Shown: positions 5,210 to 64,000 of the stretch, one piece after another
Layout: each line of letters opens with the position of its first letter
Position numbering within the stretch: the stretch's first letter is position 1
The notes under the pieces: generated by a model
Database searches by the model: none
The model's input: the letters and a program-made list of their open reading frames with translations, nothing else
Told to the model about the DNA's origin: nothing
Made by a program: the position numbers and the translations under genes
Assembly (NCBI GenBank): GCA_951406725.2
Contig: OX597842.1
Location: forward strand, 19,778,001 to 19,842,000
Direction of reading: 5' to 3'
Source: Octopus vulgaris
Taxonomy: Eukaryota
Length of the DNA stretch: 64,000 nucleotides

Positions 5210-7284
5210 CTCTGCAGCTAAAACTAACAAAACTCCAAGATTCTCACACAATTCCTCTTTCTGTAATTTTTTTCTTCAACAAAATGGTCTGGAAATTTCA
5301 TTTCTTCTTGTTTCTATATTTTATTCCTAACAAATGTTACAACTGCCATATTTTTATCAAATATAAGCTTTGCTGATATCTTAAGATGTTGCAAATGTCT
5401 TTGTAAATTTATCCAAGTTTATTCAGAATCCAAATTTAGGTTTTACCCATTTCAGAGTGAATCCAAGAAATTTCACCAATAATGTCACTCAGAAGAAATA
5501 TTTTACTGAAATTCACAGTTAATTTACATAAACAGGGTTCTTATATCCAGTTCTGTGTAACATCGTCTTCAAAATATGATAAATATTGATGACGCTTCTG
5601 CAGTAAATTTCCTCTGATATTCTGAAATAAGAGAGAAACAACAGTTTAACACAGAGTGTAGCTTTGGTTATGACAAAGGCTTGGTGTTCATTTATATACG
5701 ACATTTACTGCTACAATGATAAATCTCATTTAAGAAACAGATTGGGTTTATTTACATTTCTGAAGAGAAAAAGGGATCTTTTCGGTTTGACCGGCAGTTT
5801 TTTCTAGTGGTGTCATATGAAATTGTCACCCATAATTATGACCCTAGTATCAATCTATTGCATTTCAATCTGTTTTAGGGTTAGGAGTGGGGGAAGGGTA
5901 ATTTTCTTTTTTTTTCCACAAATGTAAATAAACCCAATCTATTTCTTAAACGAGGGACATATTCATACTGCCTTTAGGCAGTACAAAAACAACAAAAAAG
6001 TGGAAGGTGCAGTTATGACGAAAGAAAAGCAGGACAAAAACGATGCATGCAAATGGGTTGGCTGGAGGTAAATCTAGATGGAAAAGCATGATAAATTTAT
6101 GAGAACCCGCTGGGACATTAATATATATATAATTATAATAAAGGGTTATTTGCAACAAGTTGCTTAAACCACATACCGAAAATATTAGAAATAGCAGCCA
6201 AATAGGCTACTATTACTATTACTACAAAAATAAGTCTCCACAAACAACAGTATTTGCAACCCAAACAACAGTATTTGCAACCTGTATATGGTAAAAGGAA
6301 TGAAGACAACGAAATCACACAGTCTACTTTATATATATATATATACACATGAGCAAAATACCCCCTCCTCCCGGCCGTCCAATGGAATGTGCTGAGTTGT
6401 CAAACATTTAAACCAAATTTTCTCAAGATAACTTGTCCGACCGCTCCATAGGCCTCCCCTTTGAGAAACACTGATTTAACCTAAATTAGGGACACCAGCA
6501 AAAGAAGAAATAAAGGTAGACTTTTTTTCTATTCCAAAGAAAAACGATTTTATTCACAAAAATATGCAACCGAAGAGTTTAAAGTACCAGTAATTATAAG
6601 GCTGTTGACTGGGAGAACACAAACATGGTTTAAACAGTAAGCTTGGCAGGAAAGAAACGTGCCTTTAAGCAGGACAAAAACAACAAAAAATGGAAGGTGC
6701 AGTTATGTACAGGTTGACGGAGGAAAACCAGGACAAAAACGGCTTTATTGATCGCATTCTCACCTGGAATATATTATTGTAATTTTTTCTCACCTGGAAA
6801 CGATTTTTGTAATTTTTTCAAAGACTAATACACGCCCTGATACAGTCGGTATCTACAAATCAAATTTAAGTGCAATCGGATGGAGGATGCCTGAAATCCA
6901 AGAAGACACACAGACAGAACGGATTTTATATAAGAGATTATGGAAAACAGCTTTTATTAAAAATATCAGAATGGTAGATATTGATGAGTATAAATAAAAA
7001 ATATAGTGTTTTGTTATAACATGCTGTTATATCTCCTTTATCAGCTGGATATATTTATTGTTATATAAGATATTCCTTTCAACAAATGGCTTTTGATATT
7101 GATACAGTCACTCTTCTCTATGATGAGAAATATATCTGTAGTTAATTGTCTTTTTTCAGAGAAGGATATACCACAGAATCAGTTAGATGGTTTCTCTTCT
7201 ATATCAATGTGTGTCTGTGTTTATCTAAGAGATTTATTTGAGAGAACCATTCACCACAGATATCACAATGACATGGTTTCTCTC

Positions 7285-9087
7285 CTAATGAATGAGTCTG
7301 TGAGTGGTCCAGTGATCTATTTCAGAGAATGATTCACCACAGATATCACAGTGATAAGGCTTTTCACCTGTATGAGTAGGTTTGTGATTAGTTAATTTAG
7401 CTTTTACAGAGAATGATTCACCACAGGTGTCACAATGATGTGATTTCATTCCTGAATGAACACCTTTGTGTCTACTTAAATGTCCCTTTTGAATGAATGA
7501 TTTACTGCAGATATCACAGTGATATGGCTTTTCACCTGTATGAGTACGTTTGTGATTAGTTAATTTAGCTTTTACAGAGAATGATTCACCACAGGTGTCA
7601 CAATGATGTGATTTCATTCCTGAATGAACACCTTTGTGTCTACTTAAATGTCCCTTTTGAATGAATGATTTACTGCAGATATCACAGTGATATGGCTTTT
7701 CACCTGTATGAGTACGTTTGTGATTAGTTAATTTAGCTTTTACAGAGAATGATTCACCACAGGTGTCACAATGATGTGACTTCACCCCTGAATGAATACC
7801 TTTGTGTCTACTTAATTGTCCCTTTTGAATGAATGATTTACTGCAGATATCACAGTGATATGGTTTCTCACCTGTATGAGTACGTTTGTGTTTAGTTAAG
7901 ACAACCTTTAGAGTGAATGATTTCCCACAGATATCACAGTGGTAAGGTTTCTCACCTGTATGGATAAACCTGTGAGTGGATAAGTCACCACTTTGAGAGA
8001 ATGATTTATCACAGATATCACATTGATATGGTTTCTCACCTGTATGAGTACGTTTGTGTACAGTTACAGCACTTCTGTGAGTGAATGATTTACCACAGAT
8101 ATCACAGGAATATGGCTTTTCTCCTGTATGAGTAAATTTGTGAGTAGCTAAGTCACTATTTCGAGAGAAGGATTTACCACAGATATCACACTGGTAAGGT
8201 TTCTCCCCTGTATGAGTAAGTCTGTGCTTACTTAAATTACATTGCAAGGAGAATGATTTACCACAGATATCACACTGATGGGGTTTCTCGCCAGTGTGAG
8301 TATGTTTGTGTTTAGCTAAGTCACCATTTCGAGAGAATGATTTACCACAGATATCACACTGGTAAGGTTTGTCGCCTGTATGAGTAAGTTTGTGCGTAAC
8401 TAAGTAACCGCATCGAGAGAATGATTTACTACAGATATCACAGTGATATGGTTTTTCTCCTGTATGAATACGTTTATGTATAGTTACAGTACTTCTTTGA
8501 GTGAATGATTTACCACAGATATCACACTGATAAGGTTTCTCCCCTGTATGAATAACTTTGTGTGTCACTAAGTTAACTCTCACAGAGAATGATTTACCAC
8601 AGATATCACACTGATAAGGTTTCTCACCTGTATGAATAAGTTTGTGTGTAGTTAAGTTACCTTTCAAAGAAAATAATTTACCACAGATATCACACTGATA
8701 AGGTTTCTTGCCTGTATGAGTATGTCTGTGTTTAGCTAAGGCACCATTTCGAGAGAATGATTTACCGCAGATATCACACTGATATGGTTTCTCCCCAGTG
8801 TGAGTAAGTTTGTGTGTATCCAAGTTAAATTTCATGGAGAATGATTTACCACAGATATCACAGTGATATGGTTTCTCTCCTGTATGAATACGTCTGTGAC
8901 ATGTTAAACCACTACAATTAGAAAATGATTTACCACAAATATCACAATGATATGGTTTATCGCCTGTATGAATACGTTTATGTACAGTTACAGCACTTCT
9001 TCGAGCGAATGATTTATCACAAATATCACACTGATAAGGTTTCTCACCTGTATGAGTAAGTTTGTGTTTAGCTAAGTTAACTCTCAT
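7285..9087 (-). CDS. C2H2 zinc-finger ORF, 21 complete fingers (paralogue of copy 1; possibly N-truncated or a pseudogene)
   Basis: 600-aa open frame of TGEKP-linked fingers. The last finger and 3' UTR are nearly identical to copy 1. The ATG lies inside a finger. Confidence 0.85.
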
Positions 9088-9564
9088 GGAGAATGATTTA
9101 CCACAGATATCACAATGATATGGTTTCTCTCCTGTGTGAGTAAGTGTCTAGTCAAAAGACCACTTTGAGAGAATGATTTACCACAGATATCACACTGATA
9201 TGGTTTCTCACCTGTATGAATATGTTTATGTACAGTTACAGCACTTCTGCGAATTAATGATTTACTGCAGATATCACAATGATATGGTTTCTCTCGTGTA
9301 TGAGTAAGTTTGTGTTTAGTTATGTGACAGTTTTGAGAGAATGATTTACCACAGATATCATACTGATATAGTTTTTGCTCTGTGTGAATATTTCTGTTAA
9401 TAGTTAGATTAAGTTTATTTTTAATATGATTTACCACAGATATCACAATGATGTGGCTTCTCTCCTGTATGAGTAAATTTGTGAGTAGCTAAGTTAACTT
9501 TCACAGAGAATGATTTACCACAGATATCACAGTCATATACAGATTTTCCTCTTTCTTTTGGCAT
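9088..9564 (-). pseudogene. Disrupted 5' part of ZNF copy 2 (about 5 fingers)
   Basis: Same MPKERGKSVYDC start (ATG at 9564) as copy 1. A TAA plus frameshift occurs at about 9421, zinc ligands are lost (His to Asn, Cys to Tyr), and a second frameshift occurs at about 9142. Confidence 0.85.
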
Positions 9565-14583: not shown

Positions 14584-15148
14584 ATATATATATATATATA
14601 TATATATGTAATAAATGTATATCTGAACCACACTGTTCCAACATGGCCTGGCAGAGGTGTTCAGGTTTTTTACTTTTACCCAGGAGCAGATAGGTCAATT
14701 ACATCAGACACCATTGTTCAATTAGTAATTATTTCATTGATCCCCGAAAGATGGAAGGCAAAGTCGACCTTGGCAGGATATGAACCCAGAATGTAAAGAC
14801 AGATGAAATTCCGATATTTGATGAGATATCCGACCTCTGCGAATTTCTTAAGATCCCCCCACCCTCCACACAAACGCACGCAAACACATATTTTCTACAT
14901 TGTGGTTTTGAGACTTTTTTAATACTGATTAGAGATCAATAACTGTTTTATGTTGTCGAGTAAATCAGAATTTGTTGTCTGAAGACATAGAAATAAAATC
15001 GAACAAAATATTCAGCAAAAACAAAATCCTGGTGTCTGAAATCGAATGAGATATTTCTGTTTCTGAAAGTGAAAGTAATTCAGACAATAACTCAGTGACA
15101 AAGAAAACGAACTTGTATCTGACTGTAACAAATGTTTGAATACTGTTT

Positions 15149-16818
15149 AGGAGCGGCTGTGTGGTAAGTAGCTTGTTTACCAAACACATGGTTCCAGGTT
15201 CAGTCCCACTGCATGGCACCTTGGGCAAGTGTCTTATACTATAGCCTCGGGCCAACCAAAGCCTTGTGAGTGGATTTGGTAGAAGGAAACTGAAAGAAGC
15301 CCATCGTATGTATATATATATATAGGTGTAGGAGCGGCTGTGTGGTAAGTAGCTTGGTTACCAACCACATGGTTCCGGGTTCAGTCCCACTGCGTGGCAC
15401 CTTGGACAAATATCTTCTACTATAGCCTCGGGCCGACCAAATCCTTGTGAGTGGATTTGGTAGACGGAAACTGAAAGAAGCCCATCGTATGTATATATAT
15501 ATATAGGTGTAGGAGCGGCTGTGTGGTAAGTAGCTTGTTTACCAACCACATGGTTCCGGGTTCAGTCCCACTGCATGGCACCTTGGGCAAGTGTCTTCTA
15601 CTATAGCCTCGGGACGACCAAAGCCTTGTGAGTTGATTTGGTAGACGGAAACTGAAAGAAGCCCATCGTATGTATATATATATATAGGTGTAGGAGCGGC
15701 TGTGTGGTAAGTAGCTTGGTTACCAACCACATGGTTCCGGGTTCAGTCCCACTGCATGGCACCTTGGGCAAGTGTCTTCTACTATAGCCTCGGGACGACC
15801 AAAGCCTTGTGAGTGGATTTGGTAGACGGAAACTGAAAGAAGCCCATCGTATGTATATATATATATAGGTGTAGGAGCGGCTGTGTGGTAAGTAGCTTGG
15901 TTACCAACCACATGGTTCCGGGTTCAGTCCCACTGCATGGCACCTTGGGCAAGTGTCTTCTACTATAGCCTCGGGACGACCAAAGCCTTGTGAGTGGATT
16001 TGGTAGACGGAAACTGAAAGAAGCCCATCGTATGTATATATATATATATAGGTGTTGGAGCGGCTGTGTGGTAAGTAGCTTGTTTACCAACCACATGGTT
16101 CCGGGTTCAGTCCCACTGCATGGCACCTTGGGCAAGTGTCTTCTAGTATAGCCTCGGGACGACCAAAGCCTTGTGAGTGGATTTGGTAGACGGAAACTGA
16201 AAGAAGCCCATCGTATGTATATATATATATATATAGGTGTAGGAGTGGCTGTGTGGTAAGTAGCTTGGTTACCAACCACATGGTTCCGGGTTCAGTCCCA
16301 CTGCATGGCTCCTTGGGCAAGTGTCTTCTACTATAGCCTCGGGACGACCAAAGCCTTGTGAGTGGATTTGGTAGACGGAAACTGAAAGAAGCCCATCGTA
16401 TGTATATATATATATATAGGTGTAGGAGCGGCTGTGTGGTAAGTAGCTTGGTTACCAACCACATGGTTCCGGGTTCAGTCCCACTGCATGGCACCTTGGG
16501 CAAGTGTCTTATACTATAGCCTCGGGACGACCAAAGCCTTGTGTGTGCATTTGGTAGACGGAAACTGAAAGAAGCCTGTTGTATATATGTATATATATAT
16601 ATATGTATGTGTGTGTTTGTGTTTATCCCCCTAGCATTGCTTGACAACCGATGCTGGTGTGTTTATGTCCCCGTGACTTAGCGGTTCGGTAAAAGAGACC
16701 GATAGAATAAGTACTGGGCTTACAAAGAATAAGTCCCAGGGTCGAGTTGCTCGATTAAAGGCAGTGCTCCAGCATGGCCGCAGTCAAATGACTGAAACAA
16801 GTAAAAAGAGAAAAGAGA
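15149..16818 (+). repeat. Tandem array of 8 SINE family-1 heads (about 181-185 bp) ending in one full SINE
   Basis: Heads start at about 15149, 15330, 15511, 15692, 15873, 16056, 16241 and 16424, each ending in a (TA)n run. Only the last has the 3' tail. Confidence 0.95.
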
Positions 16819-24354: not shown

Positions 24355-24479
24355 TTATTTCTTAAAATATTTGTAGCCGAACAAAGCGAGTCCAACAAGG
24401 AGTCCAGCAAGGAAGAGTGAGCCAAAAATGATTCCGACAATCTCGAGTGTAGTTAGTCCATGAGGTTTAGGTTTCGGAT
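24355..24479 (-). CDS. Gene A terminal exon: stalk, transmembrane helix and short tail
   Basis: Acceptor tttattgtttgtcaattgcag. In phase 1 it translates (N)PKPKPHGLTTLEIVGIIFGSLFLAGLLVGLALFGYKYFKK*, in frame with the upstream Ig-like exon. Confidence 0.85.
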
Positions 24480-25834: not shown

Positions 25835-26083
25835 TCTTTATCTCCAAATCAATGTCTGCAGCATTAAGGTTGTCATCATCAAATTTCCAAGTCAAACATT
25901 CCTTAGTTACGTTTCTGATCCAAAGCGTGGAGGTATCTTCTAAATGAGTCACTTTATACTGAGAGCTATTAACGCATGTCCTGTCACATTCATATTTATA
26001 ATTGTGGCACTTCCAAACCACCGGTCGTTTCATATCAGATATTGTTATCGAAAGGGTGAGGTTTCCATTGAGCACAGCAGGTC
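25835..26083 (-). CDS. Gene A Ig-like exon A2 (249 bp, phase 1-1)
   Basis: Acceptor gatttctttatttcag, donor gtaagg. Open frame (x)PAVLNGNLTLSITISDMKRPVVWKCHNYKYECDRTCVNSSQYKVTHLEDTSTLWIRNVTKECLTWKFDDDNLNAADIDLEIK. Confidence 0.88.
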
Positions 26084-27780: not shown

Positions 27781-28412
27781 AAGAAGAATATATTTACCAC
27801 TTTGGGTGATGTTATACTTTTGTGTCCTTGACAAACCTGTAAAGATGAAAACAAAAATTTTGATTTTTGAAAATTTTGAAGTCCATTGTGAAGATGGCCC
27901 CTCTACTTTCCCTCAACCAGGAAGGGCAACCAGTTTTTATCTGCTCGGGGCCCATGGCAAAGGGGATCATACAGTGGACATGTCTGAAAGGGCTGAAGAC
28001 CAGCAACTGCCATTTTGTCAAAACCCTAATAAACTTTTTCAGGTTTCACTTGAAGAGGAAAATCAGGGTGGAGAGGTAAGTGCTGGCTTCCAAGCAGTTT
28101 GTTGAAAGGTGGGTGAGAGGGGTGAGCATTACCTGAGTGAATGGGCCTTCTCTCAGAGTGTACCTGTATATTGGAGAGGAAAGACTGGGAGAGGGCATCA
28201 ACCCTGGTGGCCAGGGAGACCTTGGATTTTGTGGGCTTTCTTTATGTGTGGCCCTTCAAAGTCCCCCTTCTATCAGGGGTTTTACTTTGACTTTCTTTTA
28301 TTCATTGTATGACTTTTTACATGCTAAAACCCACACTGGACCCTCCCGAATGTTTTGCTTTGTGTTAGCCCTCTGTGGTTAATAAAGAAATTATTATAAA
28401 TCATTTCCTTAC

Positions 28413-28661
28413 TCTTTATCTTCAAATCAATTCTTCCAATATTAAGGTTGTCATCTTCGAATTTCCAAGTCGAACATTTCTTAGTTACTTTTCTGATCCA
28501 AAGCTTGGAGGTATCTCCACTATGTATTACTTTATAGTAAGGGCCATCAGCGCATGTCCTGTCACATTCATATTTATAATTCTGGCACTTCCAAACCACC
28601 GGTCGTTTCATATCAGATATTGTTATCGAAAGGGTGAGGTTTCTATTGAGCACAGCAGGTC
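28413..28661 (-). CDS. Gene A Ig-like exon A1 (249 bp, phase 1-1)
   Basis: Same splice sites as A2. (x)PAVLNRNLTLSITISDMKRPVVWKCQNYKYECDRTCADGPYYKVIHSGDTSKLWIRKVTKKCSTWKFEDDNLNIGRIDLKIK. Confidence 0.88.
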
Positions 28662-28939: not shown

Positions 28940-29320
28940 AAATAGAAAATTATTATTTCTAAGTCCCTGAATGAGAAACATTCAGTAACATTACTCGAGA
29001 GTAAGGATTATTTGCCAGCATAATATGGCAGTCCTAGTTAGGGTGATTGTTACTGTTATCTAGCCCTAGGAAACACTGCCTCCAGCTGGGTATATGACAC
29101 GCTATCTATGTCCTATGGGATGCTAAACTCCCTTGTTTGAAAATATAAGGATGCAGCAAGTGTGTCATATAGCCTGCTGGAGACGATATTTCCTAGGGCT
29201 AAGGAACAGTAACAATCGTCCTAACCAGGACTGCCACATTATGTTGGCAAATAATCTCTACCCTAGAGTACTGTTACTCAATGTCTTTTGTTCAGAGATT
29301 TAGAAATAATTTTCTATTTG
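28940..29320. repeat. Palindromic element inside the duplicated unit (also at about 52160-52540 and 58733-59112)
   Basis: Imperfect inverted arms of about 165 bp: AAATAGAAAATTATTATTTCTAAG... and ...TTAGAAATAATTTTCTATTT. Confidence 0.8.
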
Positions 29321-31219
29321 TTAGATCAGAGACTTTGTGTCACTTTGGAAAGTATATATTTTGGACAAGAGTTTAGTGGAGTCATCTGTAGCCGAGCAGT
29401 TATTCTGTGCTGATGAAGGGAAATAACCCAGAGACCATTGGTATGCAGATAGATGATGTTTCCTAAGACTAAATTTACAGTATCATTCGTCCTAACCAAG
29501 ACTGCCACATTATGTTGGCAAATATATATATATATAAGTTCAGCAAAAATTTAGATTCAAATGAATATGGTACTTAATTTAGATGCACCAGAATTTTGTA
29601 TGGTGTTATCCATAGAAATCCGTGGGGTGATTATAATGAAAATAAGCAATAAGAATGACTCCGGTAATTTGGTACGATCGTTTCGTACTACATCATTTTA
29701 TTAAATTTTGTAAGTATTACAACAGTTTTAAAATACTGAGCACTCATCAGCCAATTATAGAGGTTTTCTGTTAATACAAACATTTTCATATCACGTGGCA
29801 ACATTATAGAGAAGGTAGATATATAGACAAAGATGTGGATTTAAATTTTAAGAACGTATGATGTAGTGGAACAACCAAATCTTAGTACCTCATATGTTCT
29901 TAAAATTTAAATCCACATCTTTGTCTATATATCTACCTTCTCTATAATGTTGCCACTTGATTTGATAACTTTTTTATTAATGGAAAGCCTCTATAATTGG
30001 CTGATGAGTACTCAGCATCTTATAGAGGGATTAGGCTATTATCAGCTCCCGGAAAAGATTTTAACAGGATACTTTTAGAGATGATGAGGACAGCAGTAAA
30101 GAAGAAGCTGGATTTAGGAAGAACCGTTCATGTGGAGATCAAACCGCCACTCTTGGTATCATTGTAGAGCAAAGCGCAGAGTGGAATGCACTCTATCTGC
30201 GACAATTTCATCTCAATTGAAGGAGAGGGGCCTTCTCCGTCCGGGTTGCGGATCCGTGGAATAAGCTGCCGGACGAGATAGTGAAGATGCCGACGACCGC
30301 TCGATTCAAAGTCTCCCTTGACCACAAATGGCCTGAACTCTTTGCATGAACACCACCCTGTACATAACTCCATGTCCCCCTAAATGGCCTTGCTTTTTTT
30401 GCTTTTTGAGCCAAAAAATTAACTTAACTTAGCTTAACTTGGATATAGAAAGAAAGGTAGGCCTAAGAACTCGTGGCAGAGATCAACAAAAAACGAACTA
30501 GAGAAAGGGGGACATTCATGGCAGAGTATAAGTACAGAGGCGAAAAATTATGCAACATGGAATTCAATTATGAGTGGCCTATACTCCGCGTTGGAGGGTC
30601 AAAGGCAGGAAAGAAGAATATATTTACCACTTTGGGTGATCTTATACTTTTGTGCCCTTGACAAATCTGTAAAAGACGAAAACAAAAATTTTTGATTTTA
30701 AGATGAAGTAATTCAAAATAATGTGAATAAATGAACATTACATTTCACAGTAATTTGATTGCTAAAGGATTAAACCAGCCATATCTGTTTTATGTTCTAA
30801 GTGGCTGGGTCCAGCCCCTCACACCTACCCTACAATGTCAGTCTAAAAATAAACAATCACATCATCAAAATGTCAAAACTACAAGATAACGAATGATTAA
30901 TTCAAAAACCAAGTCTAAATGAGCATTACATTAAACGGAATAAACTGATTGCTAACGAGTTAAAGTAGCCATACCTGGCACAAAGATTCTACCTGTTTCG
31001 TGTTTAAACTGGTAATGGGTCATCCTTTTACACCTGTCTTACAATGTCATTCTAAAAATGAACAGACAAGGACTGCTATGTAAAGAAGTGCTGATCTTTA
31101 ACTGCGGAGGCAATCTGTGGAAGAGGTGGACCCTGAAAGGTGCAGGACAAAACGGTGGAACATGAGGGCTTTGGATGTTGAGGCTGACATGTATTGATAA
31201 GTGACTGCGACTGCCAAAA

Positions 31220-32735: not shown

Positions 32736-33529
32736 CGGATAGATAGACAGTGGTTTTGAAAGATAGTGGGTGATTCTCAAAGACAGTACCAAGATTAGTG
32801 TTGTATGGGGTGGGTGATGGGTATGAGGACTCACTGTTAATTAACCAGGGTGGGATATAGGGAATGTTTTGGGACCTGAGGTTCTGTAAATAAGTTGTTA
32901 ATGAGGCAGATAATTTATAAAGTTAATCCAAACATGAAAGCACAAAAAAAAACACAACACGAGGACATGGAACAAATATAGTATTATTGGACGCTCAGGA
33001 AAGAAGGAGGGTTTAATGTTTCGAGTGGAGCTCTTCATCGGAAACAAATGAGAAGGAAAGATCAAGAGAAGGGAAGACAGAGAATTTATAAGTGGGATTG
33101 TGGTGGAAAATCATGAATTTTGGAAATTTTCTTGCATAAGATGCATCAACAAAATTGGGAAAATCCCTACCAAAACAAAGAAAATCCTCCTTATGTGAGT
33201 GACCCCATTCCAGACCCCTGTGCACCTGAGTAAGTTTGCCTTAACAAAAATAAGTTATGGAAAGAAATTAAATAAAATATAAATAAAACTTACAGAGAAA
33301 TGTTACAAACAATAAGCAGAACAAGATCCATTTAGCCATGATCTGAAAAAATAATTTTCAAAAGCTGCAAAATAACAAAGTTTATAGCCCAGGGTCCGAG
33401 GCTGGTCAGGCTGAGAAAAACAAACAGTCAAAATGTCATCAGTCACTCTTTAATAGATTTATGGTCAAGCCTGTGGCATTGGAGATCTTATTCTTAACTA
33501 TTTCGAATACTACAGAACGCTGTACAGTA

Positions 33530-46830: not shown

Positions 46831-46859
46831 TCAGGAAGGTTTCCAGTAATACAGGTCAG

Positions 46860-47840
46860 GGATCTTTTCGGTTTGACCGGCAGTTTTTAAAAATAATTTC
46901 CACGTAACTAAACACTTTTAAACTTTGTATACTGGTAGAATGTGTTTATAAAACATCTTTTTCTCTTGGCTTTATTGAGAAAATTCTATAGTTTGTAAGA
47001 TATTTGGGATCTTTTCGGTTTGAACGGCAGTTTTTTAAAATAATTTCCATGTAACTAAACACTTTTAAACTTCGTATACTGGTAGAATGTGTTTATAAAA
47101 CATCTTTTTCTCTTGGCTTTATTGAGAAAATTCTATAGTTTGTAAGATATTTGGGATCTTTTAGGTTTGAACGGCAGTTTTTAAAAATAATTTCCACGTA
47201 CCTAAGCACTTTTAAACTTTGTATACTGGTAGAATGTGTTTATAAAACATCTTTTTCTCTTGGCTTTATTGAGAAAATTCTATAATTTGTAAGATATTTG
47301 GGATCTTTTCAGTTTGACCGGCAGTTTTTTAAAATAATTTCCACGTAACTAAGCACTTTTAAACTTTGTATACTGGTAGAATGTGTTTATAAAACATCTT
47401 TTTCTCTTGGTTTTATTGAGAAAATTCTATAGTTTGTAAGATATTTGGGATCTTTTCGGTTTGACCGGCAGTTTTTAAAAATAATTTCCACGTAACTAAG
47501 CACTTTCAAACTTCGTATACTGGTAGAATGTGTTTATAAAACATCTTTTCTTCTTGGCTTTATTGAGAAAATTCCATAGTTTATAAGATATTTGTTGTTT
47601 TTTCCTTCAATTTCTGCAATTTCAACCAATCAATGACGTCTCTTGAGGTGAAAACATTCTCTGCCGTATGAATATGTCCCTCGTTTAAGAAACAGATTGG
47701 GTTTATTAACATTTCTGAAGAAATAAGATACCTTCCCCGCACCCCTAACCTAACCCTAGAGCAGATTGAAATGCAATAGATCGATACTAGGGTCATAATT
47801 ATGGGTGACATTTTGATATCACACTGCTAGAAAAAAATCC
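46860..47840. repeat. GGATC-TIR MITE with 5 tandem terminal units of about 147 bp
   Basis: GGATCTTTT starts at about 46860, 47007, 47154, 47300 and 47448. Confidence 0.9.
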
Positions 47841-50374: not shown

Positions 50375-50508
50375 TTATTTCTTAAAATATTTGCAGCAGA
50401 AGAAAGAGTGTCCGACAAGGATTATAGCAAGGCTGAGTATGCCAAGAATGATTCCAACAATCTCGAGTGTTCTGAGGGGTCTTGATCCATTAGGTTCAGG
50501 TTACGGAT
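50375..50508 (-). CDS. Gene B terminal TM exon with a premature TAA at its third codon
   Basis: Acceptor tttattgtttgtcaactgcag. (N)P*PEPNGSRPLRTLEIVGIILGILSLAIILVGHSFFCCKYFKK*, with the stop at 50501-50503. Confidence 0.8.
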
Positions 50509-51639: not shown

Positions 51640-51888
51640 TCTTTATCTTCAAATCAATTCTTCCAACTTTAAGGTTGTCGTCTTCAAATCTCCAAGTCAA
51701 ACATTCCTTAGTTACGTTTTTGATCCAAAGCTTGGAGGTATCTCCAAAATGAGTCACTTTATAGTCAGGGCCATCAGCGCATGTCCTGTCACATTCATAT
51801 CTATTATCCTGGCAAATCCAAGCCACCGGTCGTTTCATGTGTGGTATATATATCACAAGGTTGAGATCTCTATAGAGCTCAGCAGTTC
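51640..51888 (-). CDS. Gene B Ig-like exon B3 (249 bp, phase 1-1)
   Basis: (x)TAELYRDLNLVIYIPHMKRPVAWICQDNRYECDRTCADGPDYKVTHFGDTSKLWIKNVTKECLTWRFEDDNLKVGRIDLKIK, with AG and GTAAG boundaries. Confidence 0.88.
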
Positions 51889-53188
51889 CTGAAATGAAGA
51901 AATCAGTTAAGAAGTTTGCTTCCAAATCATACGATCCCGGGTTCAGTCCCACTACACAGCACCTGGGAAAGTGTCTTCTACTACAGCCTCAGCCTTGTGA
52001 GTGGATTTTCAAGATGGAAACTGAAAGAAGCCCATTCTATGTATAATTGTGTGTATGTGTGTGTATATATATATATACATACACACTTGTGTCTTTCAAA
52101 GCCTTGTGAGTGTATTTGATAGATGGAAACTGAAAGAAGCCCATTGTTTATATATATGTAAATAGAAAATTATTATTTCTAAGTCCCTGAATGAGAAACA
52201 TTCAGTAACATTAATCGAGAGTAAAGATTATTTGCCAACATAATATGGCAGTCCTAGTTAGGGTGATTGTTACTGCTATTTAGCCCTAGGAAACACTGCC
52301 TCCAGCTGGGTATATGACACATTATCTATGTCCTATGGGATGCTAAACTCCCTTGTTTGAAAATATAAGGATGCAGCTAGTGCGTCATATAGCCAGCTGG
52401 AGGCAACGTTTCCTAGGGCTAAAGAACAGTAACAATCGTCCTAACCAGGACTGCAATATTATGTTGGCAAATAATCTTTACCCTAGAGTACTGTTACTCA
52501 ATGTCTTTTGTTCAGAGATTTAGAAATAATTTTCTATTTGTTAGATCAGTGACTGTGTGTCACTTTGAAAAGTATATATTTTGGACAAGAGTTTAGTGGA
52601 GTAATCTCTAGACGAGCAGTTATTCGGTGCTGATGAAGGGAAATAACCCAGAGACCATTGGTATGCAGATAATGTGCTGTATAACCAGCTGGAGATGATG
52701 TTTCCTGAGACTAAATAACAGTACCATTCGTCCTAACCAGGACTGCCACATTATGTTAGCAAATAATCTTTACTTTATATATATATATATATATGAGTTC
52801 AAATGAAAATGGTACTTAATTTAGATGCACCAGAATTTTGTATGGTGTTATCCATAGAAATCCGTGGGGTGATTATAATGAAAATAAGCAACAAGAATTA
52901 CTCCGGTAATTTGGTACGATCGTTTCGTACTACATCATTTTATTAAATGTTGTAAGTATTACAACAGTTTTAAAATACTGAGCACTCATCAGCCAATTAT
53001 AGAGGTTTTCCATTAATACAAAAATTTTCATGTCGAGTGGCAACATGATAGAGAAGAAAGCCTCTATAATTGGCTGATGAGTACTCAGCATCTTAAATCT
53101 GTTGTAATACTTACAACATTTAATAAAGTGATGTAGTACGAAACGATCGTACCAAATTACCGGAGTTATTCTTGTTGCTTATTTTGAG

Positions 53189-53560: not shown

Positions 53561-56500
53561 ATTAAAAGAAGCTGCAGTGGCATTAGGAAGGGCATCCAGC
53601 TGTAGAAACACTGCCAGATCAGGCAGGAGCCTGGTGCAGCCTCCTGGCTTCCCAGACCCCGGTCGAACCGTCCAACCCGTGCTAGCATGGAAAGCGGACG
53701 TTAAACGATGATGATGATGATGATGATGAAATAGCAGTAGAAATGTTTCATCCATTATTTTCTAAGATAGGGCAGGAAGAAAATGTGCCTAATGACTGGA
53801 AAGAGGGACTCATTGTGAAATTGCCAAAAAAAGGAGATTTAAGCTTTTGCGGAAATTATAAACGGATTATGCTATTATCAGCTCCCGGAAAAGATTTTAA
53901 CAGAATACTTTTAGAGATGATGAGGACAGCAGTTGACAAATTGTTGTGTAAAGAAGAAGCTGGATTTAGGAAGAGATCAAATCGCCACTCTTTGTATCAT
54001 CGTAGAGCAAAGCGCAGAGTGGAATGCACCGATTTATTGAATTCGAAAAAGCATTCGATAGTGTAGATAGGGAAGGCTTATTGAAAATTATGCAGCACTA
54101 TGGCATACCAGACAAGTACATATCTATAATAAGAGCAACTTACCAAGGAATGTCATGCCGAGTCTTGCAAGGAAACGGAGCTACGGATAAATTCGATATA
54201 AAAACAGGAGTTCGACAGGGCTGTATACTTTCTCCCGTTTTATTTCTATTAGTCATAGATTGGATTATGAAGGAAACTACGATTGAAAGCCAAACAAGCA
54301 TTGAATGGACGGATGTGGAAGCTGTAGAAGATCTCGACTTTGCAGATGATAGGGGGCTGCTTTCACAAACATAGCCAAATGCAAAATAAAATGTCAAAAT
54401 TAGAAGCAATAGCTTCCAAACTAGGATTGAAAGTCAACCTCAAATCAATAATTATGCACGTTAATGAAGTAAACATCAAATGTATTAAACTAGAAACTGG
54501 TGAACTAGAGGATGTAGCCAAGTTTATGTATTCAGGTAGTAAGATAACGTTTTCAGGTGTCACCGACGAAGATATTAAGGTGAGAATAAGTAAGGCAAGG
54601 ACCGTTTTTCACCTGTTAAAGAAAGTATGGAGCGCAAGTGTAATTTCAATAAACAACAAAATAACCTGTCGAAAGAGCTGTTCTTAACTCCTGCTCCAGA
54701 GCGTCAGCTCGGAGTCACTCCAAAAAGCTCTATCTGTGACGATTTCATCTCAATCGAAGGAGAGGGGCCTTCTCTGTCAAGGTTGCAGATCCGTGGAATA
54801 AGCTGCCGGACGAGATAGTGAAGATGCCGACGACCGGTCGGTCCAAAGTCTCCCTCGACCACAAATGGCCTGAACTCTTTGCATGAACACCACCCTGTAC
54901 ATAACTCCATGTCCCCCTACATGGCCTTTTGCTTTTTGCTTTTTGAGCCAAAATATTAACTTAAGATTTTTTAACACTAATGTTAAAGCGATGTTCTTGT
55001 ATGGGGCTGAGACATGGCGAACAAAAGTTAAGTCAAATAAGCAAATACAACCATTCATCAACAGATACTTGCGTAGTATACTTAAAATTAGATGGCCCGA
55101 ACACATACGCAATATGGAACTATGGTAAAGAACAAATCAAGTTTCGATTAGGGAGCAAATATTTAAGAAAGAGTGGAAGTGGATAGGTAGCACGATTAGA
55201 AAAGACACACTAAATGTAGCGTAAAGTGTTTAAAGTGGAAACCGGTTGGATGTAAAAAGAAAGGTAGGCCTAAGAACTCGTGGCGTAGATCAACACAAAA
55301 GGAACTAGAGAAAGGGGGACATTCATGGCAGAGTATAAGTACAGAAGTGAAAAATTATGAAACATGGAAGTCAATTATGAGTGGCCTATACTCCACGTTG
55401 GAGGGTCAAAGGTAGGAAAGAAGAATATATTTACCACTTTGGTAGATCTTATAAATGCTATCACTTGAGAAACCTGTAAAAGATGAAAACAAAAATTTTG
55501 ATTTTAAGATGAAATATTTCAAAATAATGTGAATAAATGAACATTATATTTCACAGTAATTTGATTGCTAAATGATTAAACCAGCAATATCTGTTTTATG
55601 TTCTAAGTGGCCGGGTCCAGCCCCCACACCTACCCAACAATGTCAGTCTAAAAATAAACAACCACATCATCAAAATGTCAAAACTACAAGATAATGAATG
55701 ATTAATTCGAAAACCAAGGCTAAATGAGCATTACATTAAACGGAATAAACTGATTGCTAACGAGTTAAAGTAGCCATACCTGGCACAAAGATTCTACCTG
55801 TTTCGTGTTTAAACTGGTAATGGGTCAGCCTTTTACACCTGTCTTACAATGTCATTCTAAAAATGAACAGACAAGGACTGCTATGTAAAGAAGTGCTGAT
55901 CTCTAGCTGCGGAGGCAATCTGTGGAAGAGGTGGACCCTGGAAGGTGCAGGACAAAACGGTGGAACATGAGGGCTTTGGATGTTGAGGCTGACATGTATT
56001 GATAAGTGACTGCAATTCCTGGGGATTTGCTCTTCTTCATAAGATATGTCAAGCTAATGGAAATCAAGGATGTGGCCAGTGTCGGTAATTAGTAAAAGGC
56101 ACCTGTGCCGGTGACGTGTAATTTATAAATCTTTCATCAAAACTTTATTGAGAATTTTCAAAATGTGCTCCATCGGCCCCCTGGATATTTCAAATGTATC
56201 TGTAGACTTGTGAAACACATTTGGAAGTATTTGAGGAGTTTATCTTCTGCACTGCTAACTGAATGCATTCTTTAAGTTCAGCTAAAAGATTGCTCCATCT
56301 GGGGCATTGTGGGAAAGAAATTAATTGCAATCGTATTGAAAAAAGTTGTCATGGACAGATAAGGAATGAAAATAAAATTATAAACAAAATTAAAAATTTA
56401 ATCACTTAACATATATTAAATATGTGAAGCAGAAACAAAAAGGACCTTTAAAAAAAGGGTCCAATTTCACTGAAATAGATAATTAATTCTGGGACAGTCT

Positions 56501-58197: not shown

Positions 58198-58446
58198 TCT
58201 TTATCTCCAAATCAATTTTTCCAACATTAAGGTTGTCATCATCAAATTTCCAAGTCGAACATTTCTCAGTTACTTTTCTGATCCAAAGCGTGGAGGTATC
58301 TCCAAAATGAGTCACTTTATACTGAGAGCTATTAACGCATGTCTTGTCACATTCATATTTATAATTGCGGCACTTCCAAACCACCGGTCGTTTCATATCA
58401 GGTATTGTTATCGAAAGGGTGAGACATCCATTGAGCACAGCAATTC
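58198..58446 (-). CDS. Gene B Ig-like exon B2 (249 bp, phase 1-1)
   Basis: (x)IAVLNGCLTLSITIPDMKRPVVWKCRNYKYECDKTCVNSSQYKVTHFGDTSTLWIRKVTEKCSTWKFDDDNLNVGKIDLEIK, with AG and GTAAG boundaries. Confidence 0.88.
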
Positions 58447-61400
58447 CTGAAATAATGAAATCAGTTAAGAAGTTTGCTTCCAAATCATATGGTCCCGGGT
58501 TCAGTCCCACTACACTGCACCTTGGGAAAGTGTCTTCTACTACAGCCTGTGTGGATTTGCTAGATGGAAACTGAAAGAAGCCCATTGTATGTATCTGTGT
58601 GTGTGTGTATGTATATGTGTGTGTGTATATATGTATATACATACACACTTGTGTGTTTCAAAGCCTTGTGAGTGTATTTGATAGATGGAAACTGAAAGAA
58701 GCCCTTTGTTTATATATATGTATATATATATGTAAATAGAAAATTATTATTTCTAAGTCACTGAATGAGAAACATTCAGTAACATTACTCGAGAGTAAGG
58801 ATTATTTGCCAACATAATATGGCAGTCCTAGTTAGGGTGATTGTTACTGTTATCTAGCCCTAGGAAACACTGCCTCCAGCTGGGTATATGACACATTATC
58901 TATGTCCTATGGGATGCTAAACTTCCTTGTTTGAAAATATAAGGATGCAGCTAGTGTGTCATATAGCCAGTTGGAGACGATGTTTCCTAGGGCTAAGGAA
59001 CAGTAACAATCGTCCAGACCAGGACTGCCACATTATGTTGGCAAATAATCTTTACCCTAGAGTACTGTTACTCAATGTCTTTTGTTCAGAGATTTAGAAA
59101 TAATTTTCTATTTTTTAGATCAGTGACTGTGTGTCACTTTGAAAAGTATATATTTTGGACAAGAGTTTAATGGAGTCATCTCAAGCCGAGCAGTTATTCT
59201 GTGCTGATGAAGGGAAATAACACAGAGACCATTGGTATGCAGATAATGTGCTGTATAACCAGCTGGAGATGATGTTTCCTGAGACTAAATAACAGTACCA
59301 TTCGTCCTAACCAGGACTGCCACATTATGTTGGCAAATAATCTTTATTTTATATATATATATATATATATATGTATACACACAAAATAAGAAAATGGAGG
59401 AATAGATTCCTTTCAATCATCAACTTCCAGATAATACCAATTCATATAATTTATTAACTAATTATTTAGATTTAATAGGACAGGGCTGTATACTTTCTCC
59501 CGTTTTATTTCTATTATTCATAGATTGGATCATGAAGGAAACTACGATTGAAAGCCAAACAAGCATTGAATGGACGGATGTGGAAGCTGTAGAAGATCTC
59601 GACTTTGCAGATGATATAGCGCTGCTTTCACAAACATAGCCAAATGCAAAATAAAATGTCAAAATTAGAAGCAATAGCTGCCAAACAAGGATTGAAAGTC
59701 AACCTCAAATCAAAAATTATGCACGTTTATGAAGTAAACTTTGAATGTATTCAACTAGAAACTGGTGAACTAGAGGATGTAGCCGAGTTTATGTATTCAG
59801 GTAGTAAGATAACGTTTTCAGGTGGCACCGACGAAGATATTAAGGTGAGAATAAGTAAGGCAAGGACCGTTTTTCACCTGTTAAAGAAGGTATGGAGCGC
59901 AAGTGTAATTTCAATAAAGAACAAAATAACCTCTCGAAAGAGCTGTTCTTCACTCCTGCTCCAGAGCGTCGGCTGCGGGGTCACTCCGAAAAGCTCTATC
60001 TGTGACGATTTCATCTCAATCGAAGGAGAGGGGCCTTCTCTGTCCGGGTTGCGGTTCCGTGGAATAAGCTGCCGGACGAGATAGTGAAGATGCCGACGAC
60101 CGCTCGATTCAAACTCTCCCTTGACCACAAATGGCCTGAACTCTTTGCATGAACACCACCCTGTACATAACTCCATGTTCCCCTACATGGCCTTTTGCTG
60201 TTTGCTTTTTGAGCCCAAAAATTAACTTAACTTAAGTTAAGAATTTTTAACACTAACGTAAAAGTGGTGTTATTGTATGGGGCTGAGACATGGCAAACAA
60301 CAGTCAAGTCAAATAAGCAAATACAATCATTCATCAACAGATGCTTGCGTAGTATACTTAAAATTAGATGGCCCCAACACATACGCAATATGGAGCTATG
60401 GCAATGAACAAATCAAGTTTTGATTAGGGAGCAAATATTTAAGAAAAGGAGGAAGTGGATTGGTAGCACAATTAGAAAAGACACACTAAATGTAGTGAAA
60501 AGTGCTTTAAAGTGGAAACCGGTTGGATATAGAAAGAAAGGTAGGCCTAAGAACTCGTGGCATAGATCAACACAAAAGGAACTAGAGAAAGGAGGACATT
60601 CATGGCAGAGTATAAGTACAGAGGCGAAATATTATGCAACATGGAATTCAATTATGAGTGGCCTATACTCCACGTTGGAGGGTCAAATGTAGGAAACAAG
60701 AATATATTTACCACTTTGGGTGATCTTGTAAATGTTTGCACTTGAGAAACCTGTAAAAGATGAAAACAAAAATTTTTGATTTTAAGATGAAATAATTCAA
60801 AACAATGTGAATAAATGAACACTATATTTCACAGTAATTTGATTGCTAAATGATTAAACCAGCAATATCCGTTTTATGTTCTAAGTGGCCGGGTCCAGCC
60901 CCTCACACCTACCCTACAATGTCAGTCTAAAAATAAACAATCACATCAGCAAAATGTCAAAACTACAAAATAAAGAATGATTAATTCAAAAACCAAGACT
61001 AAATGAGCACTACATTAAACGAAATAAACTGATTGCTAACGAGTTAAAGTAGCCATACCTGGCACAAAGATTCTACCTGTTTCGTGTTTAAACTGGTAAT
61101 GGGTCAGCCTTTTACACCTGTCTTACAATGTCATTCTAAAAATGAACGGACAAGGACTGCTATGTAAAGAAGTGCTGATCTCTAACTGTGGAGGCAATCT
61201 GTGGAAGAGGTGGACCCTGGAAGGTGCAGGACAAAACGGTGGAACATGAGGGCTTTGGATGTTGAGGCTGACAAGTATTGATAAGTGACTGTGATTTCTG
61301 GGGATCTGCTCTTCTACAGAAGATATGTCAAGCTAATGGAAATCAAGGATGTGGCCAGTATCGGTAATTAGTAAAAGGCACCTGTGCCAGTGACGTGTAA

Positions 61401-63475
61401 TTTATAAATCTTTCCTCAAAACTTTATTGAGAATTTTCAAAATGTGCTCCATCGGCACAATGGAAATTTCAAATGTATCTGTAGACTTGTGAAACACATT
61501 TGGAAGTATTTGAGGAGTTTATCTTCTGCACTGCTAACTGAATGCATTCTTTAAGTTCAGCTAAAAGATTGCTCCATCTGGGGCATAGTGGTAAAGAAAT
61601 TAATTGCAATCGTATTGAAAAAAGCTGTCATGGACAGATAAGGAATGAAAATAAAATTATAAACAAAATTAAAAATTTAATCACTTAACATATATTAAAT
61701 ATGTGAAGCAGAGACAAAAAGGGTCTTTAAAAAAAAAGGTCCAATTTCACTGAAATAGATAATTAATTCTGGGACAGTCTGTATTGAAAACACTTAGCCC
61801 TACTCAAATGACCCTACACTCTGAAATCTTTACCAAGAACAAAGTCCATGGGGTAAAGAGTGGCTATAAGGGGAATCCAGGTGGGCAGATATGGAGATAA
61901 CGATGTAAATAAACAAATAAAACTGAGTGGGTTAGATATACATCCATGCGTACACGTTAATAGAGAGGAAGCAAAGACTGAAAAATTTCAGACGGAGAAT
62001 ATTCAAGCATCAGAAATCTGAATTAAATATTAACAGAGCAAACTTACACAGACTAGAAAGGCACAGAAAATCAAAGGGGAGAATGTATGGTGTTACAGCT
62101 CCTTTCTTGGCAATCGGGGTTACTTCATTGTTGGTAGATGTACCATCCATACTCACAAATAGGTCTCACTTTTTTTCACCAAAAATTTAGATAAAAATCA
62201 GGGGTACAAACTATCCAATAGATATCACAGGGATCTGAAGTGGTGCATCGGAGGTCCATGGCATACCCTGGACCTGGGCTTTTCAGTTTTAAAATTGTTA
62301 TGGAAACTTTTCTGCAATGTTTACTAGAAAGCAGAAACTGGAAGTTTGGTATTTGGTATTTTTTGACATCCAGTCATCCCAATCTTTAGTTTAAAAATTT
62401 TGATAATTGCAAACCCTACTTACAAAGTTATAGTAAGAGTTATCAATAGGCGCAGAAGTGGCTGTGTGGTAAGTAGCTTGCTTACGAACCACATGGTTCC
62501 GGGTTCAGTCTCACTGTGTGGCATGTTGGGCAAGTGTCTTCTACTATAGCCTTGGGCCGACCAAAGCCTTGTGAGTGGATTTGGTAGACAGAAACTGAAA
62601 GAAGCCCGTCGTATATATGTATATATATATATGTGTGTTTGTGTGTCTGTTTGTCCTCCAAACATCGCTTGACAACTGATGCTGGTGTGTCTATGTCCCC
62701 GTTACTTAGCAGTTCGGCAAAAGAGAACTGATAGAATAAGTACTAGGCTTACAAGGAATAAATCCTGGGGTCGATTTGATCGACAAAACGCGGTGCTCCT
62801 GCATGGCCACAGTCAAATGACTGAAACAAGTAAAAAGAGAAAAAGAATATAACCCCCACACACACACACCTTGGTATTGACCCCCTCATCCTTTGCCCTT
62901 GTGGCAAATAAAAGAAACCCTTATTATATACAACTATCAGCTGAGTTCATTGTGAAGATGGCCCCTCTACTTTCCTTCAACCAGGAAGGGTAATCAGTTT
63001 TTATCTGCTCAGGGCCCATTGCAAAAGGGATCATACAGTGGACATGTCTGAAAGGGCTGAAGACCAGCAATTGCCATTTTGTCAAAACCCTAATAAACTT
63101 TGTCAGGTTTCACTTGAAGAGGAAAATCAGGGTGGAGAGGTAAGTGCTGGCTTCCAAGCAGTTTGTTGAAAGGTGGGTGAGAGAGGTGAGCATTACCTGA
63201 GTGAATGGGCCTTCTCTCAAAGTGTACCTGTATATTGGAGAGGAAAGACCGGGAGAGGGCATCCACCCTGGTGGTCAGGGAGACCTTGGATTTACTGGGC
63301 TTTCGTAACGCGTAGCCCTTGACAGTCCCCCCACTATCAGGTCTCTTACTTTGAATTTCTTTTATTCTTTGTATGACTTTTTACATGCTAAAACCCACAC
63401 TGTACCCTCCCGAATGTTTTCCTTTGTGTTAGCCCTCTGTGGTTAATAAAGAAATTATTATAAATCATTTCTTAC

Positions 63476-63724
63476 TCTTTATCTCCAAATCAATTTTTCG
63501 AACGTTAAGGTTGTCATCATCAAATATCCAAGTCAAACATTTCTTAGTTACTTTTTTGATCCAAAGCGTGGAGGTATCTCCATCCTGTGTCACTTTATAG
63601 TCAGGGCCATCAGCGCATGTCTTGTCACATTCATATTTATAATTGCGGCACATCCAAACCACCGGTCGTTTCATATAAGGTATTGTTATCGTAAGGGTGA
63701 GACATCCATTGAGCACAGCAATTC
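63476..63724 (-). CDS. Gene B Ig-like exon B1 (249 bp, phase 1-1)
   Basis: (x)IAVLNGCLTLTITIPYMKRPVVWMCRNYKYECDKTCADGPDYKVTQDGDTSTLWIKKVTKKCLTWIFDDDNLNVRKIDLEIK, with AG and GTAAG boundaries. Confidence 0.88.
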
Positions 63725-64000
63725 CTGAAATAATGAAATCAGTTAAGAAGTTTGCTTCCAAATCATATGTTCCCGGGTTCAGTCCCACTACACTGCACCT
63801 TGGGAAAGTGTCTTCTACTACAGCCTGTGTGGATTTGCTAGATGGAAACTGAAAGAAGCCCATTGTATGTATCTGTGTGTGTGTGTATGTATATGTGTGT
63901 GTGTATATATGTATATACATACACACTTGTGTGTTTCAAAGCCTTGTGAGTGTATTTGATAGATGGAAACTGAAAGAAGCCCTTTGTTTATATATATGTA

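Follow-up and report, generated by a model that had tools for sequence, protein, structure and literature searches.

In a tandem cluster of 12 Octopus vulgaris genes predicted to encode immunoglobulin (Ig)-fold proteins, amino-acid-changing variation in the domain exons is, cluster-wide, about three times as high as variation in the introns beside them, and diversifying selection together with shuffling of sequence blocks is likely to act on these putative recognition proteins. The window analyzed here is the 64,000-nt stretch at positions 19,778,001–19,842,000 of contig OX597842.1 (assembly GCA_951406725.2), to which all exon coordinates refer; the main comparison set comprises 21 close copies of the domain exon from the cluster, taken from this single O. 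vulgaris assembly. To our knowledge, cephalopods have no established variable recognition family beyond the neural protocadherins and the chemotactile receptors. Searches with nine LOC identifiers and by topic returned no description of the family (subscription journals and supplementary tables, which may mention the genes, were outside their scope). An unnamed Ig-fold cluster with putative transcripts, an omega near 2, predicted membrane and secreted forms, and domains built by recombination offers concrete candidates for immune or self recognition in the octopus.

Each of the 12 genes has its own signal-peptide exon and last exon, and encodes a signal peptide, one to four like domains, a short stalk and an anchor. 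The features of genes A and B are listed in Table 1. Exons B1 and B2, each 249 nt with AG/GT ends and phase 1-1, are consecutive domain exons of one gene, spliced in series through micro-exons. The gene B joints from last exon to B0 (50508|51640), B0 to micro-exon, micro-exon to B1, B1 to micro-exon, and micro-exon to B2 (60750|63476, with 20 letters on the short side) were found in 2, 4, 3, 3 and 1 of four putative RNA runs, respectively, as assembled contigs that carry no level, strand or tissue and to which near-identical paralogues may contribute. Gene models of O. sinensis show the same four-domain order as gene B, and domain skipping. Because the gene B stop lies ahead of the anchor-like segment, its product is predicted to be secreted; O. 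sinensis isoform X6 likewise ends in NP. Across the cluster, last exons encode a few-residue tail, a shortened anchor or a stop, and both membrane and secreted forms are predicted, with three of the 12 genes assigned to the secreted class and four having a shortened anchor. No ITIM/ITAM or other signaling tail was seen in the 12 cluster genes read, although distant family members have longer tails; because no such tail was seen, the cluster proteins would serve as adhesion, coat or decoy molecules, not as signaling receptors.

Table 1. Features of genes A and B, in window coordinates
Feature	Position	Strand	Basis or remark
Gene A signal-peptide exon (coding part)	33294..33339	-	Gene reading
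Gene A micro-exon 1	30628..30666	-	Gene reading
Exon A2, gene A domain 1	28413..28661	-	Sequence comparison
Gene A micro-exon 2	27798..27836	-	Gene reading
Exon A1, gene A domain 2	25835..26083	-	Sequence comparison
Gene A stalk, transmembrane segment, very short basic tail	24355..24479	-	Gene reading
Intron upstream of B2	63725 to about 65990, past window edge; 63725..64000 in window	-	
Exon B2, gene B second domain, mosaic	63476..63724	-	Sequence comparison with B1 and B3
Intron downstream of B2	60751..63475	-	About 98.7% identical to that of B3, about 96% to that of B1
39-nt micro-exon (linker and strand A) of the B1 domain	60712..60750	-	Gene reading and RNA-contig joints
Intron upstream of B1	58447..60711	-	99.4% identical to intron upstream of B2
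Exon B1, strands A'-G of gene B third Ig-fold domain (predicted)	58198..58446	-	Spliced at both ends in putative RNA contigs
39-nt micro-exon of the B0 domain	55435..55473	-	Gene reading and RNA-contig joints
Exon B0, gene B fourth domain, of a more divergent type	51640..51888	-	Sequence and RNA-contig joints
Gene B last exon	50375..50508	-	N-P-stop, TAA 50503-50501, before anchor-like segment

The original prediction read a signature of diversifying selection from the B1/B2 pair, and its counts were reproduced: the exons differ at 19 nucleotides (Nei-Gojobori Sd = 2.0, Nd = 17.0; 15 residues changed), the adjoining upstream intron at 1 of 276 (58447–58722 against 63725–64000), and W24, C26, C33, C37, C63 and MKRPV are unchanged across the five exons in the window. 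K19 is variable among the 21 family copies. The accompanying caveat, that the intron on the other side is more diverged, was also borne out, with differences at 16 of the adjacent 249 nt and at 168 of 3982 columns (4.2%) over the whole downstream stretch. Of the 249-column non-exon windows, 6% reach at least 19 differences; with 192 non-synonymous and 54 synonymous sites, neutrality expects about 15 of the 19 exon differences to be non-synonymous (binomial p = 0.18). Taken alone, the pair does not depart significantly from chance and proves little about selection. The intron upstream of B2 is B1-like (13 of 2264 aligned columns differ), the one downstream is B3-like (34 of 2716 differ), and the exon between them is a mosaic, identical to B3 at 18 sites and to B1 at nine and unique at one among the three; it resembles B1 at the 5' end and, from about nt 48–112 onward, mostly B3. 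B2 is thus a recombinant with the switch point inside the exon, and the exon-versus-intron contrast is largely a recombination boundary, a clear case of a single comparison of this kind being misleading, with selection visible only family-wide.

It is highly improbable that an assembly or haplotype artefact, namely a false 5.3-kb duplication or mis-polishing between paralogues, produced the pair. The duplicated flanks differ by just 0.6–1.3% and could be allelic, and two other cluster genes that finish with a B0-type exon contain three domains, versus four in gene B. However, a B2-like domain with T12, R27, K35 and the QDG block is present in O. sinensis (8 differences), in which the four-domain order is shared; all 19 B1/B2 differences are variants shared with other family copies and hence not random errors; and an artefact would leave unexplained six disjoint flank-matched pairs elsewhere as well as the A1 and A2 pairs.

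Among the 21 copies, pN is 0.130, pS 0.070 and downstream intron diversity 0.041. The pN/pS ratio of 1.85 (codon bootstrap 95% CI 1.18–3.24) was reached in 42 of 2275 simulations that combined recombination with neutrality throughout. For the 13 copies compared with both introns, diversity is 0.111 in the exon versus 0.040 upstream and 0.041 downstream, an exon/flank ratio that only one of 1510 neutral simulations produced. In seven disjoint pairs whose flanks match to within 3% on either side, the flanks differ at 105 of 8322 positions (1.3%, biased low by selection of the pairs on flank identity) and the exons at 114 of 1743 (6.5%; Nd 96, Sd 18, p = 0.015). None of the 21 copies has a premature stop. 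Under four codon-frequency models, M0 omega was 1.96–2.10 and the M1a/M2a statistic 50–62; the M8a/M8 statistic was 50.3 under F3x4, and M2a places about 40% of codons at dN above dS. Recombination was detected (p = 0.0005, 21 copies) and inflates naive site-model tests to 42–80% false positives; therefore, the list of 17 sites is soft. Recombination without selection nevertheless hardly reproduces these values in simulation: an omega of at least 1.96 was obtained in 0 of 113 recombining no-selection simulations, and an M1a/M2a statistic of at least 50.4 in 1 of 113, the simulations being based on a crossover coalescent rather than on birth-death turnover with conversion. The exon stands above both flanks with dN > dS, robustly to recombination simulations. 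Both proposed processes, positive selection and conversion between paralogues, are supported by the 21-copy analysis, although not by the B1/B2 contrast from which they had been read. With each variant counted once, the excess of non-synonymous over synonymous changes has p = 0.03–0.18 depending on kappa (p = 0.08 with 19 copies), and in wider sets omega is 1.0 over 29 copies and 0.67 over 8 distant copies. Synonymous sites are also above the intron level (p about 0.03–0.04); therefore, variation that is old or was imported accounts for some of the exon peak.

Such import features in an account that dispenses with positive selection, in which relaxed surface constraint, neutral mosaic recombination and exon-limited import from older paralogues, exon-limited because homology to them persists only in exons, would have fooled the codon models. 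The recombinant nature of B2, the elevated pS and the false-positive rate of the naive tests fit this account, as does the presence of 49 of 85 segregating alleles in five distant paralogues, compared with 31 of 137 control bases. We nevertheless consider it quite unlikely: relaxation caps mean omega at 1, whereas about 1.9 is observed despite 35 of 82 residues being invariant among family copies; the distant donors have a pN/pS of 0.74, so that import would lower the ratio; and variants absent from six distant copies comprise 29 non-synonymous and 5 synonymous changes (ratio 1.9, p = 0.12). There is only a very slight chance that mutation itself was targeted to the exon, through conversion from spliced, A-to-I edited cDNA or through local hypermutation. 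The peak does match the exon width, diversity is high in the micro-exon (0.16) and in the last exon (0.12) too, and CpG-type sites account for 19 of 86 segregating exon sites versus 7 of 76 in the intron. However, the A>G excess is not significant (14/104 versus 6/82, p = 0.23), diversity differs by codon position (0.135, 0.115, 0.096), and 13 four-fold sites lie at the intron level (0.033); an editing or cDNA signature was sought among the exon variants and not found.

The domain is predicted to adopt an Ig fold, the Greek-key beta-sandwich of the immunoglobulin superfamily (IgSF; V/I-set). The structural model of P0041, a relative from O. sinensis, has a pLDDT of 93–97 over residues 21–110, and its best Foldseek matches are VNAR and the I-set domains of titin/obscurin (E 4e-5, probability 1.0; TM 0.46–0.50, computed on the whole 135-residue model), with VIA Z scores of 10–11 to V/I-set domains (obscurin Ig32: Z 10.7, rmsd 2.8, 88 aligned). 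All 29 of the 29 copies compared keep the core Trp, W24, which falls in the predicted C strand. By strand order, I13 and F68 occupy the positions of the canonical B-F disulfide (Cys23-Cys104), which is absent, and the cysteines are at 26, 33, 37 and 63, with C33–C37 and C26–C63 as the putative disulfides; as the Alr V-set domains also lack the canonical pair, this marks an atypical IgSF member, not a non-member. The tyrosine corner and the EF-loop Asp are absent as well, with W66 in place of Tyr and K, E or N at the Asp position (62). The C'' strand region has two bridge residues only by DSSP, and V-set and I-set matches are tied. Pfam returned no family for three of three single exons and partial I-set matches only, summed over repeats, for whole proteins; a model of the five exons lacking strand A had a pLDDT of 38, and a profile search of solved structures gave no matches. 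In the ESM Atlas, the best clusters were mollusc proteins without names (0.91–0.93), with V-set clusters at 0.89, which serve as leads only. A CD2 match (E 0.018) was set aside as its alignment crosses a domain junction, the link to Haliotis proteins is weak, with E 1e-6 across five repeats and an hhalign probability of 6%, and bacterial matches were treated as chance (three looked up by name; the two scanned carry HYR repeats).

When residues are assigned as inward or outward by strand alternation, not by solvent accessibility, 2 of 21 inward residues vary, compared with 45 of 61 others. The proposed ligand-binding surface is not demonstrated by the variation, as variable residues occupy both sheets and every loop, and no single binding patch was found among them; most outward positions vary, the putative GFC face about twice as much as the ABED face. 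All 21 domain proteins are distinct and assembled from shuffled blocks, and 51 of their 81 minor amino-acid variants are seen again among 11 domains from O. sinensis. The binding partner might be another octopus, in self/non-self, mate or gamete recognition through like-with-like or allele-specific binding as in Hydractinia Alr. The spread of variation over the whole outer surface, the distinctness of the 21 proteins, the tandem domains with tiny tails, which suit adhesion, and an Alr domain 1 similarly devoid of the canonical cysteines (PMC9546547) speak for this possibility, which we regard as unlikely: the secreted and anchor-shortened genes fit coats or decoys better, and the cluster has neither Alr's FN3-like spacer nor an ITAM/ITIM tail. 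A broader proposal, that octopods possess a germline-diversified Ig system in which exon-limited block shuffling and selection yield an individual-specific membrane and secreted repertoire, as a self/non-self or variable immune code, is speculative and improbable. Rather, we think it fairly likely that selection for new surface residues, combined with recombination between copies, explains the exon divergence, the probable driver being an arms race against a binding partner that itself changes, for instance a microbe or parasite. Unequal crossover and conversion would keep homogenizing the introns, while tracts making two exons alike would be selected against and those importing a different block favored, leaving a divergence peak of exon width; in B1/B2, a recent exchange ending inside the exon would have made the upstream introns near-identical.

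Arthropod Dscam contains arrays of tandem, near-identical Ig exons, one of which is chosen per transcript; the octopus exons are also tandem and near-identical but are joined in series via micro-exons, not mutually exclusive, and no two genes share a signal-peptide or last exon. In vertebrate CEACAM/PSG proteins, the N domain has no disulfide and some members are secreted, and the octopus domain likewise lacks the canonical disulfide and has predicted secreted members. CEACAM/PSG also resembles the octopus cluster in its tandem Ig-fold genes, conversion among domain exons, fast non-synonymous change (there on the CC'C''FG face) and receptor/decoy logic (PMC5112662). CEACAM1 is among the tied structural matches (Z 10.1, rmsd 2.4, 89 aligned), as are many Ig domains, and neither Pfam nor the PDB sequence searches listed a CEACAM. 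Unlike CEACAM/PSG, the octopus genes read carry no ITIM/ITAM tail, and every domain, not the N-terminal one alone, is diversified; furthermore, in Xenopus, conversion keeps the exons similar and it is the introns that diverge (PMC5112662), the opposite of the octopus pattern. Hydractinia Alr is likewise a clustered invertebrate IgSF in which the domains have no B-F cysteine pin, are missed by Pfam (in the octopus, as single exons) and model as Ig folds (PMC9546547). Alr domain 1, however, mostly lacks Trp41 and keeps an Arg-Asp salt bridge (PMC9546547), whereas the octopus domain keeps the Trp and has four cysteines of its own, and the V-I-I, FN3-like spacer and signaling-tail layout of Alr differs from the spacerless octopus architecture. 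Finally, exon 5 of the human red/green opsins is a diverged exon between two homogenized introns, read as selection resisting conversion (PMC3924837). The octopus exon is also a divergence peak between homogenized introns, but in a many-copy patchwork with dN > dS, whereas the opsins are two fixed paralogues kept apart by two sites.

The domain exons B1 and B2 of gene B, 249 nt each, differ at 19 nucleotides, with 2 synonymous (Sd) and 17 non-synonymous (Nd) differences that change 15 residues. As originally predicted, the upstream introns are nearly identical, differing at 1 of 276 positions (13 of 2264 over their full length), W24, four cysteines and MKRPV are invariant in the five window exons, and divergence is higher on the other side, where the 249 nt downstream of the two exons differ at 16. 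Taken alone, the pair makes a weak case for selection: 78% of the sites are non-synonymous, and a count of 17 among 19 therefore falls short of significance (p = 0.18).

Our genome search for the family exon yielded at least 83 matches, mostly on contig OX597842.1 (C29), whose positions 19778001-19842000 make up the window, and 82 of those listed lack an internal stop. In the stretches fetched between 19.74 and 20.33 Mb of this contig, we counted 12 genes with 22 domain exons, each of which opens with a signal-peptide exon, continues with one to four pairs of 39-nt micro-exon and 249-nt exon, and closes with a last exon. The last exon encodes a complete anchor followed by a tail only a few residues long in five genes, a shortened anchor in four, and N-P-stop in three, among them gene B. 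Gene B runs from the signal peptide through B3, B2, B1 and B0 to the last exon, with B3 and the gene start lying outside the window. The B1 translation is contained with 100% identity in a public Octopus vulgaris predicted protein, and the O. sinensis relatives (LOC115225115/116) carry only the annotation "uncharacterized." The public model CAI9743596.1, a single protein of 869 aa, joins an H2B-like start to gene B and then to an unrelated stretch and a part resembling the neighboring gene A; it runs through the gene B stop and is likely a mis-annotation. Three O. sinensis isoforms (P0020, P0029 and P0038) have an alternative short hydrophobic C-terminus that by eye resembles a GPI-anchor signal and was not located in the window.

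Features of the window and of the surrounding cluster (window positions unless C29 is given)
Feature	Position	Strand	Remarks
Histone H2B and H2A	441-1465	H2B minus, H2A plus	Divergent
C2H2 zinc-finger arrays	4523-5275, 7285-9488	minus	Interleaved with Ig cluster
Tandem arrays	15145-16620, 46859-47594		181-bp short-repeat fragment; 147-bp unit
Inversion, ~380 bp	28940-29319 vs 52160-52539, 58734-59113		Intron upstream of A2 (gene A) vs those of B0, B1
Decayed reverse-transcriptase fragments	54000-55400, 59480-60700		Inside each duplicated unit; presumably LINE-like
Micro-exon	60712-60750 and others		Signal-peptide end and strand A; internally duplicated copies double as inter-domain linker; diversity 0.16 across 21 copies
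5' UTR exon, repeated partial copies	C29 20247827-20250306, 20315208-20317217		Upstream of some genes; several at 236-bp spacing

In contigs from four runs of putative RNA, one from each of four studies, we found GT-AG joints between the last exon and B0 (2/4 runs), B0 and micro-exon (4/4), micro-exon and B1 (3/4), B1 and micro-exon (3/4), and micro-exon and B2 (1/4), although paralogues may account for some of these. The contigs join domain exons in series, which supports serial splicing of the gene B exons and argues against Dscam-type exon choice.

Selection was assessed on 21 copies (21 of the 22 domain exons), retained from 30 fetched loci for an alignable downstream 530 nt; nine loci were excluded. 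Mean pN was 0.130 and pS 0.070, compared with intron values of 0.041 downstream (512 columns) and 0.072 upstream (89 columns); pN exceeded pS in 205 of 210 non-independent pairs, and pN/pS was 1.85 (codon-bootstrap interval 1.18-3.24). Our own codon-model code gave an M0 omega of 1.96, statistics of 50.4 for M1a/M2a and 50.3 for M8a/M8, and ~43% of codons with omega ~4, the M0 and M1a/M2a results being stable over four frequency models and without two B0-type copies. Recombination among the copies is strong (incompatibility test, p = 0.0005) and inflates such tests, with false positives of 42%, 80% and 74% in three simulated null sets. With recombination modelled, omega nevertheless stood out: none of 113 nulls reached 1.96 (highest 1.59), and one matched or exceeded the M1a/M2a statistic. 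The pairwise ratio of 1.85 was attained in 42 of 2275 all-neutral simulations and never in 600 that included a purifying class. All of our nulls represent crossover within a coalescent rather than the birth of genes and conversion between them. For the 13 copies whose flanks can be aligned over a long stretch, the exon had a diversity of 0.111, compared with 0.040 in the upstream and 0.041 in the downstream flank, an exon-to-flank ratio attained in 1 of 1510 neutral simulations. The original exon-intron argument calls for pairs that match in both flanks; 11 of the 210 pairs do so, and the seven disjoint ones differ by 1.3% in the flanks and 6.5% in the exons (Nd 96, Sd 18, p = 0.015).

However, when each variant is counted once, the support for positive selection becomes marginal (p 0.03-0.18; 0.08 by another count). 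Furthermore, synonymous variation in the exons is above the intron level, and many segregating alleles recur in distant paralogues (49/85 vs 31/137 controls); thus, the exon peak is partly old or imported variation. Omega drops to 1.0 across 29 copies and 0.67 across eight distant ones, placing the strongest signal among the young expansion. Selection is well supported at the family level, and we consider positive selection on these exons very probably real. The predicted "positive selection and/or conversion" is supported for both processes by the family-wide analysis, not by the B1/B2 contrast.

The downstream intron of B2 pairs with that of B3 (34 of 2716 positions differ) rather than B1. 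When B1, B2 and B3 are aligned together, B2 sides with B1 at 16 of the 18 variable sites upstream and with B3 at 62 of the 96 downstream; within the exon, it groups with B3 at 18 sites, with B1 at nine, and is unique at one. These groupings point to a recent exchange tract ending within the exon, probably an unequal crossover or conversion. At all 19 B1/B2 differences, both alleles are present in other copies; hence, these are shuffled family variants rather than post-duplication mutations. Since O. sinensis has a B2-like domain, this type of exon seems to predate the near-identical flank beside it.

The structural model of a single-domain O. sinensis relative (P0041, from 29 sequences; pLDDT 93-97 across the domain) resembles V- and I-set Ig domains. 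Read by strand order in this predicted model, the canonical cysteine positions hold I13 and F68, W24 is retained, and CxxxC comes after strand C'. Among the close relatives looked up, named matches come only from Octopus and Argonauta; a Haliotis match is weak. Variable residues make up 2 of 21 inward positions vs 45 of 61 others, with faces assigned by strand alternation, a contrast that is partly circular because inward residues are hydrophobic. By region, the GFC face has a pN of 0.22 compared with 0.11 for ABED, the loops spanning 0.10-0.27, and omega is 5.4 in the last third of the exon vs ~1.5 in the other two thirds. As for the proposed ligand-binding surface, variation thus extends over almost the whole surface, fastest on the F-G side, and does not single out one binding site. 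N-glycosylation sequons at residues 8, 39, 50 and 58 come and go among the 21 copies (none in B2, three in A1).

To conclude, the family combines mosaic copies and homogenized introns with diverse, intact exons in which dN exceeds dS. Selection would purge exchanges that make domains alike and retain new combinations. By analogy with CEACAM clusters (PMC5112662), the likely driver would be a changing external partner; we hold the complete interpretation, in which this partner is a microbe or parasite, to be reasonably probable. Its main rival is an identity code, which the family might provide as in Hydractinia Alr (PMC9546547). We found no description of this family in the accessible portions of the literature searched. 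The evolutionary pattern is of an already known kind, the exon peak resembling the divergence peak reviewed in PMC3924837, which follows the same reasoning of selection against conversion.
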